Assembly: GCA_965203805.1 (NCBI GenBank)
Contig: OZ241917.1
Coordinates: 2,016,001 to 2,080,000 of the forward strand
DNA length: 64,000 nt
Reading direction: 5' to 3'
From: Candidatus Latescibacterota bacterium
Lineage (GTDB): Bacteria > Latescibacterota > UBA2968 > GCA-2709665
Both the position numbers and the translations under genes were made by a program. A model generated the notes under the pieces. The model was given only the letters and a program-made list of their open reading frames with translations, had not been told where the DNA came from and made no database searches. Position 1 is the first letter of the stretch, and every line of letters begins with the position of its first letter. Shown in pieces: positions 2,488-22,004 of this stretch.

Positions 2488-4932
2488 ATGGCATTATCCA
2501 AACAGTATCGTCCACAGGAAACAGAGCCTCGCCTTCAGGCGCGCTGGCGGCTCGCGAGTATCTACAAATTTGAGAGACAGGCCACGGGCCCTGTGTACGC
2601 AATCGACACCCCGCCTGCGACCGTGTCCGGAAAACTCCACATGGGCCACGTCTATTCCTACAGTCATGCTGATTTCATGGCGCGCTTCTGGAGAATGAAC
2701 GGCCAACGGGTGTTTTATCCTATGGGATATGACGACAACGGTTTACCCACCGAACGGTTGGTGGAAAAACTGTTGGGAATCCGCGCAAACGAAATTGGCC
2801 GCGAGGAATTCATAAATCAATGCTTGCGCGTCAGCTTGGCCACAGAAAGAGAATACGAGAGTCTCTGGATTCGGCTGGGGCTGTCGGTCGACTGGTCGCA
2901 TACCTACCGCACTATCGGTCGCGCCGCCCGGCGAATTGCGCAGAAATCATTCATCGACCTTTTCGAAAAAGGGCTCGCGTATCGTAAGAAAGCGCCTGCG
3001 GTCTGGTGCCCGGAATGCCAGACCGCCATCGCCCAAGCCGAACTGGACGAAGCGGATCGGATGGGCGAATTGGTCACAATAGACTTCCGCCTCGCGGACG
3101 GAAATCCAATACCGATCGCCACAACCCGGCCGGAGCTTCTAGCGGCGTGCGTAGCAATCTTCGTCCATCCCAGTGACGACCGCTACAGTTCGTTTATCGG
3201 CCACGACGTTACCGTACCACTTTATGGACGCGAGGTTTCGATATTGCAGGACAAGGGGGCGGATCCCGAAATGGGTACAGGGGCTGTGATGTGCTGCACC
3301 TTCGGCGACGCCGCTGACGTGGCATGGTGGCATTCTCATCACCTGCCGCTTGTCTCCGTTATCGACGGAAACGGCCGGTTGAACCGTGGATCCGGCGATC
3401 TCAACGGCCTTTCCGTACCAGAAGCCAGGCGACATATCGTAAGGACGCTTGATGATCGCGGTCTGATCCGGGATCGACGGCCCTTTCCACAATCAGTTCG
3501 GATCCACGAACGCTGTGACACGCCAGTGGAATTCATCGTCGCCCCTCAGTGGTTCATTAACATCCTCGACTTCAAGGACCGCTGGCTTAGCGCAGGCGAA
3601 GAAATATCGTGGCATCCCCCGCATTTGAAAACCCGCTACATTGAATGGATCGAAAACCTGCATTGGGACTGGTGCATCTCGCGACAGCGCAACTTTGGCG
3701 TACCGTTTCCGATCTGGTACTGCAAAGCTTGCGGAGACGTCAAAGTTGCCCCCGAACAGAAACTGCCCATAGACCCCCTCCAATCGTCCCCAGATGTGAA
3801 TTGCAATTGCGGCGCCGACGATTGGGTCGCGGAAACAGACGTTATGGATACCTGGGCTACGTCGTCGCTCAGTCCTCAAATCGCCGCTCGGTGGCAATCG
3901 AATAATGAGCTTTATGGTAACGTCTACCCAATGTCCATGCGCCCGCAGTCACATGAGATCATCCGGACGTGGGCCTTCTACACGATTGTCAGATCCCACT
4001 ATCATTGCGGTCGAGTACCTTGGAATGACGTATGCGTATCCGGTTGGGGCCTGGCTCCTGACGGTGCGGGGAAAATCAGCAAGAGCAGAGGCGGTGGACC
4101 GACGGCACCCATGGCCGCAATCAGGAAGTACTCGGCAGACGCAGTTCGATATTGGGCGGCCGGAACGGGTTTTGGAAAAGACACAGTCATTAGCGAAGAA
4201 AGAATCCAGGCCGGCGGCAAACTGATCAACAAGCTCTGGAACGTCGCCCGCTTCAGCGAACGCTTCCTTCAGGGATATCGCGATTCAATTGAACCATCAA
4301 CCCTGACCCCAGCGGACCGCTGGATTCTGGCGCGGGCACAACGCGTAATCAAACAGACAACTTGCTCTTTCCGAAACTACCAGTACGCGCAGGCAAGGCA
4401 TGCAGTCGAAATCTTCTTTTGGCGAGACGTGGCTGACAACTACCTGGAAATGGCCAAACAACGCCTTTATGCAGACGCCGAGGGCGCAGCAAGCGGCGCG
4501 AAATATGCACTATGTCACGTGCTTCGAACCTGCGTTCACCTCTTTGCGCCGTTTCTGCCCCACGTAACCGACGAGATCTACGCCGGGCTATTCGCAAAGC
4601 GTGGAGAATCCATCCACACCTCAACCTGGCCCTCGGTGGATGTGCGACTGGTGGACGATGTCGCGGAGGCGCACGGAAACCGACTGGTTGAGATTGCCAC
4701 TGCCGTTCGCAGATTCAAGAGCGAATCCAACCTCCCGCTCAGTGCGCCCGTGCATCTGTTACAGCTTTCAGTCAAGGATCATGCGCTCTCAATGTCGCTG
4801 AAGGAGGCTGAAGCCGATATGACCAGTATTACACGCGCTGACAAGCTTGACGTCCGGCTGAATCACCCTGTCGACGCCGGCCTTCGAGGCGTGCTCGAGA
4901 GCGATGCTGTATACGCGGCGGTTGACGTCTAA
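2488..4932 (+). CDS. valS: valine--tRNA ligase, archaeal-like (type 2) form
   Basis: IDTPPATVSGKLHMGH (HIGH), ATTRPE, GTGAVMCCTFGD, DWCISRQR, KISKS; lacks the bacterial C-terminal coiled coil. Confidence 0.95.
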   Translation: MALSKQYRPQETEPRLQARWRLASIYKFERQATGPVYAIDTPPATVSGKLHMGHVYSYSHADFMARFWRMNGQRVFYPMGYDDNGLPTERLVEKLLGIRANEIGREEFINQCLRVSLATEREYESLWIRLGLSVDWSHTYRTIGRAARRIAQKSFIDLFEKGLAYRKKAPAVWCPECQTAIAQAELDEADRMGELVTIDFRLADGNPIPIATTRPELLAACVAIFVHPSDDRYSSFIGHDVTVPLYGREVSILQDKGADPEMGTGAVMCCTFGDAADVAWWHSHHLPLVSVIDGNGRLNRGSGDLNGLSVPEARRHIVRTLDDRGLIRDRRPFPQSVRIHERCDTPVEFIVAPQWFINILDFKDRWLSAGEEISWHPPHLKTRYIEWIENLHWDWCISRQRNFGVPFPIWYCKACGDVKVAPEQKLPIDPLQSSPDVNCNCGADDWVAETDVMDTWATSSLSPQIAARWQSNNELYGNVYPMSMRPQSHEIIRTWAFYTIVRSHYHCGRVPWNDVCVSGWGLAPDGAGKISKSRGGGPTAPMAAIRKYSADAVRYWAAGTGFGKDTVISEERIQAGGKLINKLWNVARFSERFLQGYRDSIEPSTLTPADRWILARAQRVIKQTTCSFRNYQYAQARHAVEIFFWRDVADNYLEMAKQRLYADAEGAASGAKYALCHVLRTCVHLFAPFLPHVTDEIYAGLFAKRGESIHTSTWPSVDVRLVDDVAEAHGNRLVEIATAVRRFKSESNLPLSAPVHLLQLSVKDHALSMSLKEAEADMTSITRADKLDVRLNHPVDAGLRGVLESDAVYAAVDV

Positions 4933-5038
4933 CGGGATCCTCAGTCGTCATCTATGGTGTGTGCCGATTTGATCTAAAAACCGTTTAAGTATCAGACCCT
5001 TTGGTGATTTTTACAGAGTGAGCCTGGAGACCTGACCA

Positions 5039-5179
5039 ATGACGACGCGTTGTTCCATCTACCACATCAATACCTCACTGAAGTCACCCGGAACAGCCGT
5101 GTGCCTGGACGTCAATCCCTACAACGATAATAACAACCATAACCCTATCCAACGGCGGGCAGGCCCAAATGGCAGCTAA
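5039..5179 (+). CDS. putative Asn/Asp-rich attenuator leader peptide of aspS (46 aa)
   Basis: SD GGAGA 5026-5030; MTTRCSIYHINTSLKSPGTAVCLDVNPYNDNNNHNPIQRRAGPNGS*; 6 Asn + 2 Asp in 12 codons (5108-5143). Confidence 0.8.
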   Translation: MTTRCSIYHINTSLKSPGTAVCLDVNPYNDNNNHNPIQRRAGPNGS

Positions 5180-5196
5180 ATGTTCACCATGAAGAG

Positions 5197-5232
5197 AACC
5201 CGCCGTGGGTCGCACACCAACGGCGGGTTTTT
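5197..5232 (+). terminator. attenuator terminator upstream of aspS
   Basis: AACCCGCCGT / ACGGCGGGTT stem ending in a T5 run, about 40 nt before the aspS start. Confidence 0.85.
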
Positions 5233-5274
5233 CATGATCGAAAACTCAGACCGTCAAAACAGGAGATTTATCCA

Positions 5275-6594
5275 ATGACCTACGTTTCAATACCCCGGCT
5301 CAGTGATCATGTGGGGCAGATCGTCACACTCTGTGGATGGATACACACCCTTCGAGACCAGAAACAAATGCAATTCATCGTTCTCCGCAATCCCACCGGA
5401 ATGGTCCAGGCCGCCGTTGAGAAACAATCGAATCCCGGCCTGGCAAGAATGGTTTCCACCCTCACACGGGAGTCCGCTGTTCGCCTCACCGGCCGTGTCG
5501 TGCCAAACCCGAACGTCCGCCTTGGCGGCATCGAAATCCACCTGGAGGGGCTCCGCATCGAAAACAGGGCGGAATCGCCTCTGCCGATCGAACCATTTGG
5601 CGAAGTGAGACCTGGATTGGAACGGAGGCTTGACTGGCGGCATCTGGACCTGCGACGCCCAGCGAACCATCTGCTTTTCCAGGTACAGACCACCATCGAA
5701 GCCGCAATGCGAAACTTCTGGCGACGCGAGGGATTCATCGAAATTCATACCCCGAAGATTATGGGCAGCGCAAGTGAATCCGGTGCCGAACTCTTTGAAC
5801 TCCCGTATTTCGACGCCACGGCCTACCTCGCTCAGTCGCCCCAGTTCTACAAGCAGATGGCCATGGCAGCAGGCTTCGAACGAGTCTTTGAAATTGGCCC
5901 CGTTTTCAGGGCGAACCCCTCGTTCACTTCGCGTCACGACACCGAGTTCACCAGCGTAGACGTTGAACTCGCATGGATCGAATCGCACGATGACCTCATG
6001 CACTTTGAAGAACTTTGGCTCTGCCATACTCTGCTCGCCGTGCAGGAATCACACGGCGAAGCAATTTTCAAGCGTTTTGGCACTGAAGTTTGCGTTCCTG
6101 ACCGTCCCTTTCCACGCATCACCATGGAAGACGCTGTCGCACGGCTCGCGGAACTGGGGTACACACCCCCACCACAAAAACAGGGCGACCTTTGCCCACA
6201 GGGAGAGCGCCTGCTTGGCGAATACATCCGGGAAACTTACGGCCACGAGTTCGTTTTCCTGACCGATTATCCTGTTTCCGTCCGCCCTTTTTATCACATG
6301 CGGTACCCTGATAACCCGATCGTCACCAAGAGCTTCGACCTTTTATGGAAAGGCCTGGAACTGACCACAGGCGCGCAACGCGAACACCGACCAGCCGTAC
6401 TGACCGACCAGGCGAAAGAAAAGCGGCTCAAGTTAGAACCCCTACGGTTCTACCTGGACTTTTTCAAATACGGGTGTCCACCACACGGCGGCTTCGGTTT
6501 CGGCCTGACCCGAATGCTCATGATTCTACTTGGATGCAAGAACGTACGGGAAGTCACGTTTGTCTATCGCGGCCCAAAGAGAATCTACCCGTAG
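5275..6594 (+). CDS. aspS: aspartate--tRNA(Asp/Asn) ligase, short archaeal-type, probably non-discriminating
   Basis: OB-fold GWIH..RD, YLAQSPQFYKQM, FRA..S.TSRH.TEF, TTGAQR, YGCPPHGGFGFG; 439 aa, no GAD insertion; SD AGGAG. Confidence 0.9.
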   Translation: MTYVSIPRLSDHVGQIVTLCGWIHTLRDQKQMQFIVLRNPTGMVQAAVEKQSNPGLARMVSTLTRESAVRLTGRVVPNPNVRLGGIEIHLEGLRIENRAESPLPIEPFGEVRPGLERRLDWRHLDLRRPANHLLFQVQTTIEAAMRNFWRREGFIEIHTPKIMGSASESGAELFELPYFDATAYLAQSPQFYKQMAMAAGFERVFEIGPVFRANPSFTSRHDTEFTSVDVELAWIESHDDLMHFEELWLCHTLLAVQESHGEAIFKRFGTEVCVPDRPFPRITMEDAVARLAELGYTPPPQKQGDLCPQGERLLGEYIRETYGHEFVFLTDYPVSVRPFYHMRYPDNPIVTKSFDLLWKGLELTTGAQREHRPAVLTDQAKEKRLKLEPLRFYLDFFKYGCPPHGGFGFGLTRMLMILLGCKNVREVTFVYRGPKRIYP

Positions 6595-6630
6595 GGCGCC
6601 AATTACAGAATCCGCAGGACCGACAAACAA

Positions 6631-6659
6631 GCGCCGGAGCGATGTTCCCGCTCCGGCGC
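6631..6659. other. strong hairpin between convergent genes
   Basis: GCGCCGGAGCG-N7-CGCTCCGGCGC; no clear U-tract. Confidence 0.45.
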
Positions 6660-6841
6660 CTGTCTTCGCGGTCCATGGGCAGTATCTCCCGGTCCTTTCT
6701 TTCGAATCCGGATCAGGAAAGCACCTTTCCAACGTACCGCAGATTGTCGTTTGTTCGCGCTTCAGTTATTGTCTGACGCACGTTTTTCACGTAGGCCCGG
6801 TTGTCGACGATCCGAACCCGTGAGTCGCCCGGCTGCGTGGG

Positions 6842-7816
6842 CTAGCGGGCTTCGAAAAAGAACCGGATTGTATCCCCCTCTCTTAAAATAGCATCGAAGA
6901 ACTCCTGATCCTCCTCGTTCAGTTCTCCCGCCGCCTGAAGCACAATCCGCATGTATTGTTCCCTGGAGAGCGTGAGCGTAAATTTGTCGCCGTCCACTTC
7001 GAAGGACGACTCCATGATGAGACCGTCACTCTCCACGATGGTGAGGGTATTGCCGCTGAGCGTCCAGGTCCCCAAATCGGACCAGGCGCCCGAACTGTCC
7101 TGGTCCTCAAACGTACCGTCAGGATGGAAACGCCGGATCGGCGACAAGACGCTGTCGCGTAGACTGGTCTCCAGATCAGCCGTGAATTCCGAGACAATCA
7201 GTGCGGCGGTGGCGCTATCCACCACGCCTTCCTGCAGGATGGCGGCAATCAGATTCCGGCTTATCGTCTCAACCATATCCGTACCAACGTACGCCCACGA
7301 TCCGACAAATGCCGGTGTTGAAAGCGGGGACGAACCGATCACGCGCGCCTTCCCGCCAACGGGAAGTTCTGCCGCCACCTGGTAACCGCCATTTACCGGA
7401 ATGCTCGACCAGGAGCCCAGAACCGATCCATCCTGGATCACGCGCGCGCTGTAGTAGCCGTTCACGTTGCCGGACACGATTTCGATGCGGGCCTCGCCCT
7501 GAGCATCGGTTGTGCCCGACCAGGCAAAACTTGGCGGGCGGCCCGAAATCGAACGCGATAGCTCCACGGTGACGCCACTCATCGGCGCCCCGTCCTTCAG
7601 CACGGCGGCAACGAGAACGGCCTGACTCTTCGTCCCGCCAACCGCCAGTTTACCCAGCGGCTGTCCTGCGTGCAACTGCCGGGTCGCAGTGTCGCCCCCA
7701 TCAGACAGCGGGTCCGGTTCAGGCGCCATGAAAGTAGTTACGCGATCGCCCCCGCAGCCGGATATCACGGCCGCGGCAATCAACAGACATGACACGCTTC
7801 GAATTGCGCCAGGCAT
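6842..7816 (-). CDS. lipoprotein: N-terminal beta-rich module plus lipocalin-like C-terminal domain
   Basis: SD AGGAGG; lipobox ISGC; FVGSW and GTWTLSGNTLT motifs. Confidence 0.65.
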   Translation of the reverse strand: MPGAIRSVSCLLIAAAVISGCGGDRVTTFMAPEPDPLSDGGDTATRQLHAGQPLGKLAVGGTKSQAVLVAAVLKDGAPMSGVTVELSRSISGRPPSFAWSGTTDAQGEARIEIVSGNVNGYYSARVIQDGSVLGSWSSIPVNGGYQVAAELPVGGKARVIGSSPLSTPAFVGSWAYVGTDMVETISRNLIAAILQEGVVDSATAALIVSEFTADLETSLRDSVLSPIRRFHPDGTFEDQDSSGAWSDLGTWTLSGNTLTIVESDGLIMESSFEVDGDKFTLTLSREQYMRIVLQAAGELNEEDQEFFDAILREGDTIRFFFEAR

Positions 7817-8199
7817 CAAAAGCCTCCTTATTTAAATGTCTCACGAGACAACCGCGGGCATGTCCCGCGGCCATGTATCCTCAGGCTGAAAACCGGTATC
7901 CGTGTATGACCCAACGGAAGCCGGAAACCGCTACGGCGGATGCAGCCATGTTCTAAGACTCGCGAGACGGCGGATTGTTTCTGTCCGGGTCCTGTTTCGG
8001 CGAAAACCGCGGCAAAAGACAGATTCGCCAGGCAATATGCGAGCGTTCAACCCGTGACGGCTATGCGTGGAAATCATGAACAAAACACTTGACATATCGA
8101 GAGAATCCTATTATCTAATCGTTTCGGCACCTTTCCGTCGATAAGTTCCAATTAATGGCAACGGAGTGGTCGGACCACAATAAAAAAGGAGATCGGTCG

Positions 8200-21896: not shown

Positions 21897-21904
21897 TTAA
21901 AGTA

Positions 21905-21983
21905 GATCCGCGCGGGGTGCCGAACGGCTGAGATCATACCCTTGGAACCTGATCTGGATTATGCCAGCGTAGGGAAGCGGAAC
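21905..21983 (+). ncRNA. TPP riboswitch
   Basis: GGGGTGC..GCTGAGA..ATACCCT.GAACCTGATCTGGATTATGCCAGCGTAGGGAA; upstream of thiC. Confidence 0.95.
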
Positions 21984-22004
21984 AAAGGTCTTTTAACAAA
22001 TAAA

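Follow-up and report, generated by a model that had tools for sequence, protein, structure and literature searches.

A predicted asparagine/aspartate-codon attenuator with an arrest-type peptide block upstream of an accessory aspartate–tRNA(Asn) ligase gene in Latescibacterota

INTRODUCTION

The present study deals with a short leader and the gene that follows it, aspS2, at positions 5026–6594 of a 64,000-nt stretch of DNA from Candidatus Latescibacterota bacterium (GenBank assembly GCA_965203805.1, contig OZ241917.1, forward strand, positions 2,016,001–2,080,000). The whole 64-kb stretch is called the window hereafter, and coordinates are counted from its first letter unless a genome position is stated. 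We found that a leader open reading frame (ORF) of 46 codons, rich in asparagine (Asn) and aspartate (Asp) codons, is followed by an intrinsic terminator and then by aspS2, which is predicted to encode an accessory archaeal-type aspartate–tRNA(Asn) ligase. On comparative grounds the leader is a real, conserved regulatory element, and we regard it as likely that it acts as an Asn/Asp-codon attenuator of aspS2. The complete reading that we favour is a ribosome-mediated leader-peptide transcription attenuator which would sense Asn-tRNA (and Asp-tRNA) and would be locked in its OFF state by a probable ribosome stall; we hold this reading to be probable. The parts of the element, their conservation, the kept base pairing, the selection on the peptide and the family of the enzyme all rest on sequence and its comparison between genomes.

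RESULTS AND DISCUSSION

An Asn/Asp-rich leader ORF precedes aspS2

An initial annotation, made from the letters of the window alone, had proposed an Asn/Asp-sensing attenuator upstream of a non-discriminating (ND)-type aspS, composed of a Shine–Dalgarno (SD) motif, a 46-aa upstream ORF with a run of Asn and Asp codons, and a terminator. The SD motif, start codon and stop codon of this ORF were confirmed, and the codon run was read at the place where it had been described. The parts of the element are as follows, with the source of each assignment in brackets; MFE stands for minimum free energy.

5026..5029, + strand: SD motif GGAG of the leader ORF, 9 nt 5' of the ATG (direct reading)
5039..5179, + strand: leader ORF, 46 aa, ATG at 5039 and TAA at 5177–5179 (sequence and ORF list)
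5096..5113, + strand: candidate protector strand (segment 1), predicted to pair with 5154–5173 in the absence of a ribosome (MFE structure of 5000–5290)
5114..5143, + strand: codons N P Y N D N N N H N, where the ribosome is proposed to stall when Asn-tRNA or Asp-tRNA is scarce (direct reading)
5144..5167, + strand: invariant peptide block P-I-Q-R-R-A-G-P, with RAGP as the proposed pause or arrest site (aligned leaders)
5162..5164 and 5165..5167, + strand: Gly codon (proposed P site) and Pro codon (proposed A site) within the peptide block
5149..5159, + strand: segment 2, the 5' strand of the antiterminator, able to pair with the terminator 5' arm (repeat and pairing analysis)
5197..5232, + strand: intrinsic terminator (segments 3 and 4), stem 5197–5210/5216–5229, T-run 5228–5232 (folding and repeats)
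5261..5265, + strand: SD motif AGGAG of aspS2, outside the terminator hairpin (direct reading)
5275..6594, + strand: aspS2, predicted accessory archaeal-type aspartate–tRNA(Asn) ligase, 439 aa, the regulated gene (profile scores and ORF layout)

The codons at 5108–5143 read D V N P Y N D N N N H N, and the ten codons at 5114–5143 comprise six Asn, one Asp, one His and one Tyr. This composition was found throughout the leaders that we compared: the 14 codons before the Pro-Ile motif contained three to eight Asn and one to three Asp codons in all 26 distinct leaders. In the window leader the 14-codon span includes Asp24 (5108–5110), which brings its Asp count to two. A near-identical relative has a purer run, NPNNNNNNHN. 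In an ad hoc scan of the 5.87-Mb genome no other short ORF was both Asn-rich and followed by a terminator, and no further Asn-rich leader, for example before gatCAB or asnS, was detected by it.

The ribosome-binding site and start of the leader (5026–5043) are a 78% copy of those of aspS2 (5262–5279), both having GGAG, a 9-nt spacer ending in CCA and ATG AC, so that both ORFs open with Met-Thr. The leader may have originated by duplication of the 5' end of aspS2, to judge from this resemblance.

The leader peptide shows coding-type conservation

Leaders of the family f1 were exactly 46 aa long in six of six cases, drawn from four genera, and each was preceded by a GGAG-type SD motif 8–10 nt upstream; the SD motif and the start codon were kept among the leaders in general. 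We analysed an alignment of 18 sequences (A1), in which the invariant columns fell on the first two positions of the P-I-x-R-R-A-G-P codons and the third positions were variable; this pattern spanned the last eight codons. All four Ala codons (GCA, GCC, GCG and GCT) and all four Gly codons (GGC, GGG, GGA and GGT) were in use, and neither the Ala nor the Gly was replaced in any locus with an intact gene. At the peptide level, M1, I, R, R, A, G and P were invariant in 12 of 12 aligned leaders, and the N and P preceding I-x-R-R-A-G-P were present in at least 90% of them. Because the first two codon positions are invariant and the third varies, we conclude from this comparison that the leader peptide is translated and under selection. 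The residues of the Asn/Asp run behaved differently from this block: they were not fixed by position between lineages, and their composition alone was kept.

The initial annotation had missed the invariant C-terminal PI(Q/R)RRAGP altogether, and with it the fact that this block overlaps the antiterminator strand and carries RAGP, the core of the arrest sequences of SecM and YwcI.

Terminator and antiterminator are conserved as alternative helices

The sequence CCAACGGCGGG occurs exactly twice in the window, at 5149–5159 and 5217–5227 (chance value 0.06; two or more copies in 0 of 100 shuffles), which bears out the earlier observation that an 11-nt copy of the terminator 3' arm lies between the regulatory codons and the stop codon. 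In the repeat search the terminator arms 5197–5210 and 5216–5229 were 93% complementary, and the alternative pairing of 5149–5159 with 5199–5209 was 91% complementary. The predicted terminator at 5197–5232 also held up on folding, as the hairpin with its T-run had an energy of −25.5 kcal/mol (z = −4.36) and none of 200 shuffles was as stable; a simple terminator scanner omits it, its loop and stem rules excluding the hairpin. In a transcript that ends before the terminator 3' arm, the 5149–5159:5199–5209 helix was present in the MFE structure, as would be expected if 5149–5159 is an antiterminator strand.

The energy of the antiterminator duplex of the window was −21.5 kcal/mol, a value matched by 3 of 500 shuffles. 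It lay between −18.2 and −21.7 kcal/mol in 17 of the 18 sequences and was −14.4 kcal/mol in the remaining one (L016); in 16 of the 18, no more than 3 of 500 shuffles reached it. Both helices were kept across the alignment. For the terminator (11 pairs), 97.0% of 198 cells were paired and 5 of the 11 pairs had changed on both sides, compared with 30–57% pairing in slid controls. The antiterminator (12 pairs, A1 columns 51–62 with 107–118) was paired in 90.3% of 216 cells, with 3 of the 12 pairs changed on both sides and 28–54% pairing in slid controls. The percentage paired was matched by 0 of 500 shuffles for either helix. The terminator stem varies by lineage (…CGCCG…, …CGTCG… or …CGTTG…), and the Arg codons opposite it track the change, either by a synonymous switch from CGG to CGA or by G-U pairs.

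Next, the leaders were folded individually. In pre-terminator transcripts, at least 7 of the 13 positions of the antiterminator core were paired in the MFE structure of 24 of 25 distinct leaders. With the terminator 5' arm present, the antiterminator was found in the MFE structure of 12 of the 25 without a ribosome and of 20 with a ribosome footprint, the footprint being a ribosome forced onto the second Asn codon in what is a thermodynamic sketch only. In the family f2 the candidate protector takes the form of a long hairpin (−25 to −33 kcal/mol), the base of which is formed by the Asn/Asp codons and a segment past the stop codon.

The RAGP block lies where a stalled ribosome would mask the antiterminator

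Every intact leader ends in N-P-I-(Q/R)-R-R-A-G-P. Relative to the first nucleotide of the Gly codon, the antiterminator strand lies between −16 and −2 nt in all 26 distinct leaders, and a ribosome with this Gly in its P site would be predicted to cover the strand exactly with its trailing half. In the same 26 leaders the terminator core lies 34–41 nt past the Pro codon, beyond the reach of the ribosome. The stop codon is found one to four codons past the Pro in 25 of 26 and, since it lies that much further on, a ribosome at the stop codon would leave the antiterminator strand largely uncovered, especially in f1. The exception is L016, in which the stop codon lies 57 codons past the Pro.

In that locus (L016:2560–3016, − strand), RAGP is followed by 57 codons without an in-frame stop, and the reading crosses the terminator and enters aspS2 out of frame.

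In SecM, RAGP forms the C-terminal core of the arrest sequence, and in Bacillus subtilis YwcI the same four residues stall ribosomes with Gly in the P site, the Pro being required; RAPP-like motifs of ordinary proteins mostly fail to arrest, and the adjacent N-terminal region contributes to the effect (PMC10987492, PMC12992588). The present leader has the features by which sequences of this class are recognized, namely a core near the C-terminus, a small ORF upstream of a regulated gene and a conserved adjacent region. The fate of the block in loci with a damaged gene was mixed. It had decayed in L158 (to RRRRHP) and L018 (to RRWRPP), in both of which aspS2 is broken or fragmentary, and it was retained in L017 and L019, which are also aspS2-defective. 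Taken together, we regard the proposal that the RAGP block serves as a pause or arrest locking the OFF state as an evenly balanced one.

aspS2 encodes a predicted accessory aspartate–tRNA(Asn) ligase

The aspS2 product scored above the cut-offs of both aspartate–tRNA(Asn) ligase equivalogs (NF003483, 474.6 bits compared with 353; TIGR00458, 384 compared with 368.4) and below those for AsnRS and bacterial AspRS, the bacterial-type model matching only in part. It consists of a class IIb core, tRNA-synt_2 (PF00152), and an OB anticodon domain (PF01336). In its size class, its N-terminal OB fold and its lack of a GAD insertion it agrees with the archaeal type. The nearest solved relatives are archaeal AspRS and Thermus thermophilus AspRS2 (1n9w, E = 5e-83), the closest being the Thermococcus kodakarensis enzyme. 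His24 aligned to Trp26 of the latter (1b8a/3nel), and His is also found at this position in 1wyd (Sulfolobus tokodaii) and 1n9w. We take His at Trp26 and Pro at Lys85 (T. kodakarensis numbering) to mark ND enzymes. Thus the ND-type assignment of the initial annotation stood, by the two equivalog scores and His24, although the gene is an accessory paralogue and not the cell's only aspS. On the evidence of family and residues, aspS2 is an accessory archaeal-type aspartate–tRNA(Asn) ligase of predicted specificity.

The genome, a single contig that is 99.8% complete, provides the setting for such an enzyme, with the following genes (genome coordinates).

829264–830517, − strand: AsnRS (488 bits, cut-off 342.6)
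2360701–2362278, + strand: GlnRS
1147031–1148473, + strand: GatB
near 714048–714803, − strand: bacterial-type AspRS
1232693–1232768: single tRNA-Asn(GTT), with U1-A72

A LysRS-like gene is also present. In this genome AsnA was not found and no AsnB scored above its cut-off, the best match having 83.6 bits against 267.1. In Deinococcus radiodurans and T. thermophilus, which have a like gene set, a second archaeal-type AspRS and GatCAB make Asn on tRNA(Asn) (PMC4206432). By its gene content, the layout of the present genome is of this Deinococcus/Thermus type.

The element travels with aspS2

Among 41 relatives, an aspS2 orthologue was found in 19, of which 16 were full-length, one was split, one was a fragment and one had stop codons; an N/D-rich leader and terminator lay upstream in 16 of 16 full-length loci. 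When the search was extended to 168 genomes of the phylum Latescibacterota, orthologues were present in 29 (by family, 7 of 21 in f1 with the own genome excluded, 18 of 31 in f2, 2 of 3 in f3 and 1 of 1 in f11), and the leader was found at 27 of the 29 loci, in at least three families. In one of the two leader-less loci the gene abuts the upstream ORF (L155), and in the other a 43%-identical gene follows another ORF in a 2.4-Mb genome (L159). The upstream neighbour is valS in f1 and a methyltransferase-like ORF in the genus g6. Because the upstream gene differs between lineages, the element belongs to aspS2 and not to valS. The initial annotation would have its attenuator recur as N/D-rich upstream ORFs with compensatory changes in the stems. 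Such ORFs accompany 27 of the 29 orthologues, with the two-sided changes described above, both helices kept and a coding-type pattern of conservation, which argues for an Asn/Asp-codon leader attenuator as far as comparison can.

The aspS2 gene is split, stop-bearing or fragmentary in L017 (G007), L019 (G036), L158 (G084) and L018 (G037). Tandem N/D-rich leader and terminator units were found in five loci (L015, L016, L156, L158 and L018), and the distal tandem leader keeps the antiterminator nucleotides (…CAA(C/T)GGCGGG…) while reading …Q(R/W)RD…, with no AGP.

Beyond these loci, a pattern scan of genome contigs gave, among the 119 matches listed, at least 11 leader-like sequences and 108 chance matches in GC-rich ORFs. 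A stricter pattern applied to metagenome contigs gave two stretches, one of them real. When 5.8 billion proteins were searched with a profile, 8 of 787 candidates matched with E up to 0.01, all of the same leader type.

An orphan leader and terminator were seen in L119 (3835–3972, − strand), with aspS2 missing downstream and a 368-aa TnpB/OrfB-like ORF nearby (1633–2739, − strand); this arrangement suggests that aspS2 was lost there by rearrangement. In the public record L102 the leader is identical to that of L003, which belongs to the window's genus by grouping.

Proposed mechanism

From these data we infer the stalling at Asn/Asp codons, the arrest at RAGP and the direction of regulation, which together would work as follows. 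Transcription from valS or from another promoter would enter the 46-codon leader. With a good supply of Asn-tRNA(Asn) and, in second place, of Asp-tRNA(Asp), the ribosome would clear the codon run and pause or arrest at R-A-G-P, its P site occupied by Gly. A ribosome at this point would mask 5149–5159, the terminator 5197–5232 would form and aspS2 would be off. When charged tRNA(Asn) is scarce, the ribosome would stall on the Asn/Asp codons at 5114–5143 and hold the protector pairing open; the freed 5149–5159 would then pair with 5199–5209, RNA polymerase would read through and aspS2 would be made. More ND-AspRS would load Asp onto tRNA(Asn), GatCAB would amidate it, and Asn-tRNA(Asn), and hence asparagine, would be restored.

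The most specific form of this proposal, an 'arrest-locked' attenuator in which two principles described only apart from each other until now, starvation stalling (here at Asn/Asp codons) and a SecM-type RAGP arrest, are combined and the arrest serves solely to park the ribosome on the antiterminator strand, is tentative, and we give it slightly less than an even chance. If true, it would be the first arrest peptide to enforce transcription termination and the first attenuator to read Asn-tRNA(Asn), a product made on the tRNA by ND-AspRS and GatCAB, and feedback on tRNA-dependent Asn synthesis would close without a sensor of the free amino acid.

Evidence against the mechanism and alternative explanations

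Several observations weigh against the proposed attenuator. Leaders of the genus g1 (L001–L004 and L017) have one to four His codons among the 14 codons of the run; His is as frequent as Asn in some of them and makes up 4 of 14 codons in L002. The Asn/Asp model gives no account of these His codons. That the composition of the leader predicts the dual specificity of the enzyme, as the initial annotation had it, we can only infer, the same His codons being unexplained. The link to Gln/nitrogen status that was also proposed there would likewise be conjectural. The counts of covarying pairs were matched by shuffles (78 of 500 for the terminator and 217 of 500 for the antiterminator), and, as the alignment draws on a small number of related lineages, the compensatory changes represent few independent events. 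In the folding sketch the antiterminator was still missing from the MFE structure of 5 of the 25 leaders with a ribosome placed, and the f2 protector, although 93.5% paired, had 0 of 22 pairs covarying and was indistinguishable from shuffles. A crude ORF set of the own genome showed no depletion of RAGP (41 observed compared with 57.4 expected, ratio 0.71), whereas RAPP (0.28) and RGPP (0.34) are depleted in it; arrest is context-dependent and, for the present leader, putative.

Other such points concern the enzyme. The equivalent of Lys85 is Arg (…NVRLGG…), where 1n9w and 1wyd carry Pro. Either of the two changes alone has been reported to be sufficient, and Arg at the Lys85 position is compatible with ND activity. 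The presence of aspS2 and that of AsnB were not anticorrelated, as AsnB was found in 6 of 16 genomes with an intact aspS2 and in 9 of 25 without. Because many relatives have neither aspS2 nor AsnB, aspS2 is not the sole possible route to Asn; the bacterial-type AspRS may itself be non-discriminating, and aspS2 may be a booster rather than the only route.

We then weighed these findings against other explanations of the locus. The closest retains the Asn/Asp attenuator and dispenses with the arrest: the ribosome would run to the stop codon, the protector (1:2) would reform and the terminator would form, the peptide being kept for another reason, such as a trans-acting small peptide or the demands of overlapping RNA strands and codon choice. 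The distal tandem leaders, which keep the antiterminator nucleotides without AGP, show that an attenuator lacking the motif is possible, and the lack of RAGP depletion in the genome's ORFs points the same way, as do the failure of most RAPP-like motifs to arrest out of context (PMC10987492) and the existence of trans-acting leader peptides such as peTrpL. However, the 3-nt periodicity, with A, G and P invariant over varying third bases, is more than RNA pairing alone could produce, and the antiterminator strand would lie under the trailing half of a ribosome at Gly and be largely uncovered by one at the stop codon. Moreover, L016 retains RAGP despite its 57 codons without a stop, and decay of the motif was seen only where aspS2 is broken (L018 and L158). 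We therefore consider the attenuator without arrest unlikely. A nascent-peptide sensor of the TnaC, SpeFL or SecM kind appears less likely again. Here the N/D(H) stretch and PI(Q/R)RRAGP would act together in the exit tunnel, and a ligand such as free Asn or Asp, or else the residue inserted at the Asn codons, would tune the arrest in place of starvation stalls on codons. The nine invariant C-terminal residues with a polar, composition-constrained stretch directly N-terminal to them would suit such a sensor, arrest peptides being described as needing an 'adjacent region' of this sort (PMC12992588), and the free exchange of His for Asn in g1 fits a need for polar residues better than one for particular codons. 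Yet the residues of the run vary in position between lineages with only their composition kept, a run of Asn codons followed by terminator and antiterminator is what characterizes the sensing of charged tRNA, the distal tandem leaders have the N/D-rich composition but no arrest core, and we found no precedent for ligand binding by a peptide of this kind.

The His codons of g1 also raise a broader reading, in which the run would be a general series of NAY codons (Asn, Asp, His and Tyr) and would report a G34/queuosine-type tRNA state rather than asparagine. The tRNAs for Asn, Asp, His and Tyr share the queuosine modification. Of the 40 codons that separate 'NP' from 'PI' in g1 leaders, 38 are NAY, His and one Tyr included, and both there and in the window (5120–5143) the eight codons before P-I-Q-R-R-A-G-P are almost all of this kind. 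Outside g1, however, nearly all codons of the run are for Asn or Asp, the gene under control is an AspRS acting on tRNA(Asp)/tRNA(Asn) rather than a modification enzyme, and drift is the simpler explanation, as His, Asp and Tyr codons are one first-base change from Asn codons. The NAY reading is thus very improbable. Scarcely tenable, finally, is the view that the hairpin is the ordinary terminator of valS with a chance ORF in the spacer, or that the element is RNA-only (a T-box or a riboswitch). The hairpin does lie downstream of valS in f1, and the promoter scan gave no sigma-70-like promoter between valS and the leader. Against this, the element travels with aspS2 whatever the upstream gene, its conservation is of the coding type, an orphan copy (L119) sits where aspS2 was lost, and Rfam gave no match to a T-box or any other family there. 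This last explanation is contradicted by the comparative data.

Relation to known systems

Leader-peptide attenuation is a textbook mechanism, known for a handful of amino acids. The proposed Asn/Asp attenuator resembles the classical ones (trp, his, phe, leu, thr and ilv; pheST of γ-proteobacteria; trpS2 and leuS of Streptomyces) in having a translated short ORF with a run of cognate codons, mutually exclusive antiterminator and terminator, a candidate protector, and a position upstream of a gene that would restore the sensed aminoacyl-tRNA. It differs from them in that Asn (with Asp) would be sensed, in that the target is an enzyme of tRNA-dependent amino-acid synthesis, and in the invariant 9-residue C-terminal block of the leader, which has an arrest-type RAGP core and doubles as antiterminator strand. 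The proline-codon leaders of Salmonella mgtA and mgtCBR respond to the status of Mg2+, proline or ATP, and the genes under them serve virulence and transport. They share with the proposed attenuator the choice of an RNA structure by slow decoding at particular codons and the arrangement of tandem leader units in series, whereas the two units found here in some lineages are N/D-rich and lie upstream of aspS2.

Attenuators upstream of aminoacyl-tRNA synthetase genes have been described for pheST and, in Streptomyces, for trpS2 and leuS (PMC1262725). The initial annotation had known of no described Asn/Asp attenuator, and our full-text literature searches likewise turned up no Asn- or Asp-responsive attenuator, PMC12992588, PMC4833913 and PMC1262725 included. 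The one match for aspS was a generic structure prediction in Shewanella (PMC2659441). The searches suggest that an arrest-type motif coinciding with an antiterminator strand is new, as far as they reached, the supplementary lists of arrest-peptide upstream ORFs in PMC10987492 and PMC12992588 lying outside them. The regulated enzyme would be the entry step of tRNA-dependent Asn synthesis, and the element would therefore show how a bacterium with a layout of the Deinococcus/Thermus type, which has both the direct (AsnRS) and the indirect (ND-AspRS/GatCAB) route, decides when to run the indirect one.

An Asn-specific T-box over the amidation genes of Clostridium acetobutylicum was reportedly described by Saad et al. 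in 2012 (J Biol Chem; cited in PMC4206432). This T-box is the nearest functional analogue of the proposed attenuator, as charging of tRNA(Asn) reportedly controls the indirect pathway of tRNA-dependent amidation in an organism where redundant routes exist. The sensors differ: in C. acetobutylicum the RNA binds uncharged tRNA directly, whereas here the sensor would be the translating ribosome. With regard to the enzyme, D. radiodurans and T. thermophilus likewise have a second archaeal-type AspRS (AspRS2) of ~430 aa beside a bacterial-type AspRS; in contrast, the present enzyme occurs in another phylum, with a patchy presence (29 of 168 genomes), and its specificity is predicted. We know of no leader-peptide control of the Deinococcus/Thermus AspRS2 genes, although no search aimed at it was made. 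Those species also resemble the present genome in having AsnRS, GlnRS and GatCAB and no AsnA or AsnB (PMC4206432).

The leader resembles SecM, YwcI and ApdA/ApdP in that it is a small upstream ORF with R-A-G-P close to its C-terminal end, the residues N-terminal to this core are conserved, and a ribosome would be expected to stall when Gly occupies its P site and Pro its A site (PMC10987492, PMC12992588). Known members of this class open mRNA structure and thereby act on downstream translation, and many are 'monitoring substrates', either secreted or in the membrane, that are freed by a pulling force, whereas the present leader is without an obvious signal or transmembrane segment. Furthermore, the putative stall here would favour termination (OFF), relief coming from earlier starvation stalls. 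The invariant RAGP block suggests a role for an arrest peptide in the control of transcription termination, outside secretion monitoring. The element is small (46 codons, about 200 nt) and provides a model that lends itself to experiment, and as an element of an uncultured phylum it illustrates regulatory RNA/peptide devices that are invisible to family-based annotation (Rfam and Pfam).

Flanking genes and other features of the window

The genes on either side of the element are as follows.

2488..4932, + strand: valS (valine–tRNA ligase), the upstream gene (NF009687, 1017 bits, cut-off 738)
6842–7819, opposite strand: next ORF after aspS2 (ORF list)

The gap between valS and the leader contains no terminator, and the two may be co-transcribed; in L005 the leader SD motif overlaps the valS stop codon. 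The promoter scan detected no sigma-70-like promoter in 4000–7500, the region between valS and the leader included. In an Rfam covariance scan with E up to 10, neither a T-box nor a leader family was found at 4800–5400, the sole low match there being P9 (14.7 bits, gathering score 43). The only Rfam family above threshold in the window was the TPP riboswitch (RF00059), whose aptamer lies at 21903–21992 on the + strand with 72.8 bits compared with a gathering score of 54.3.

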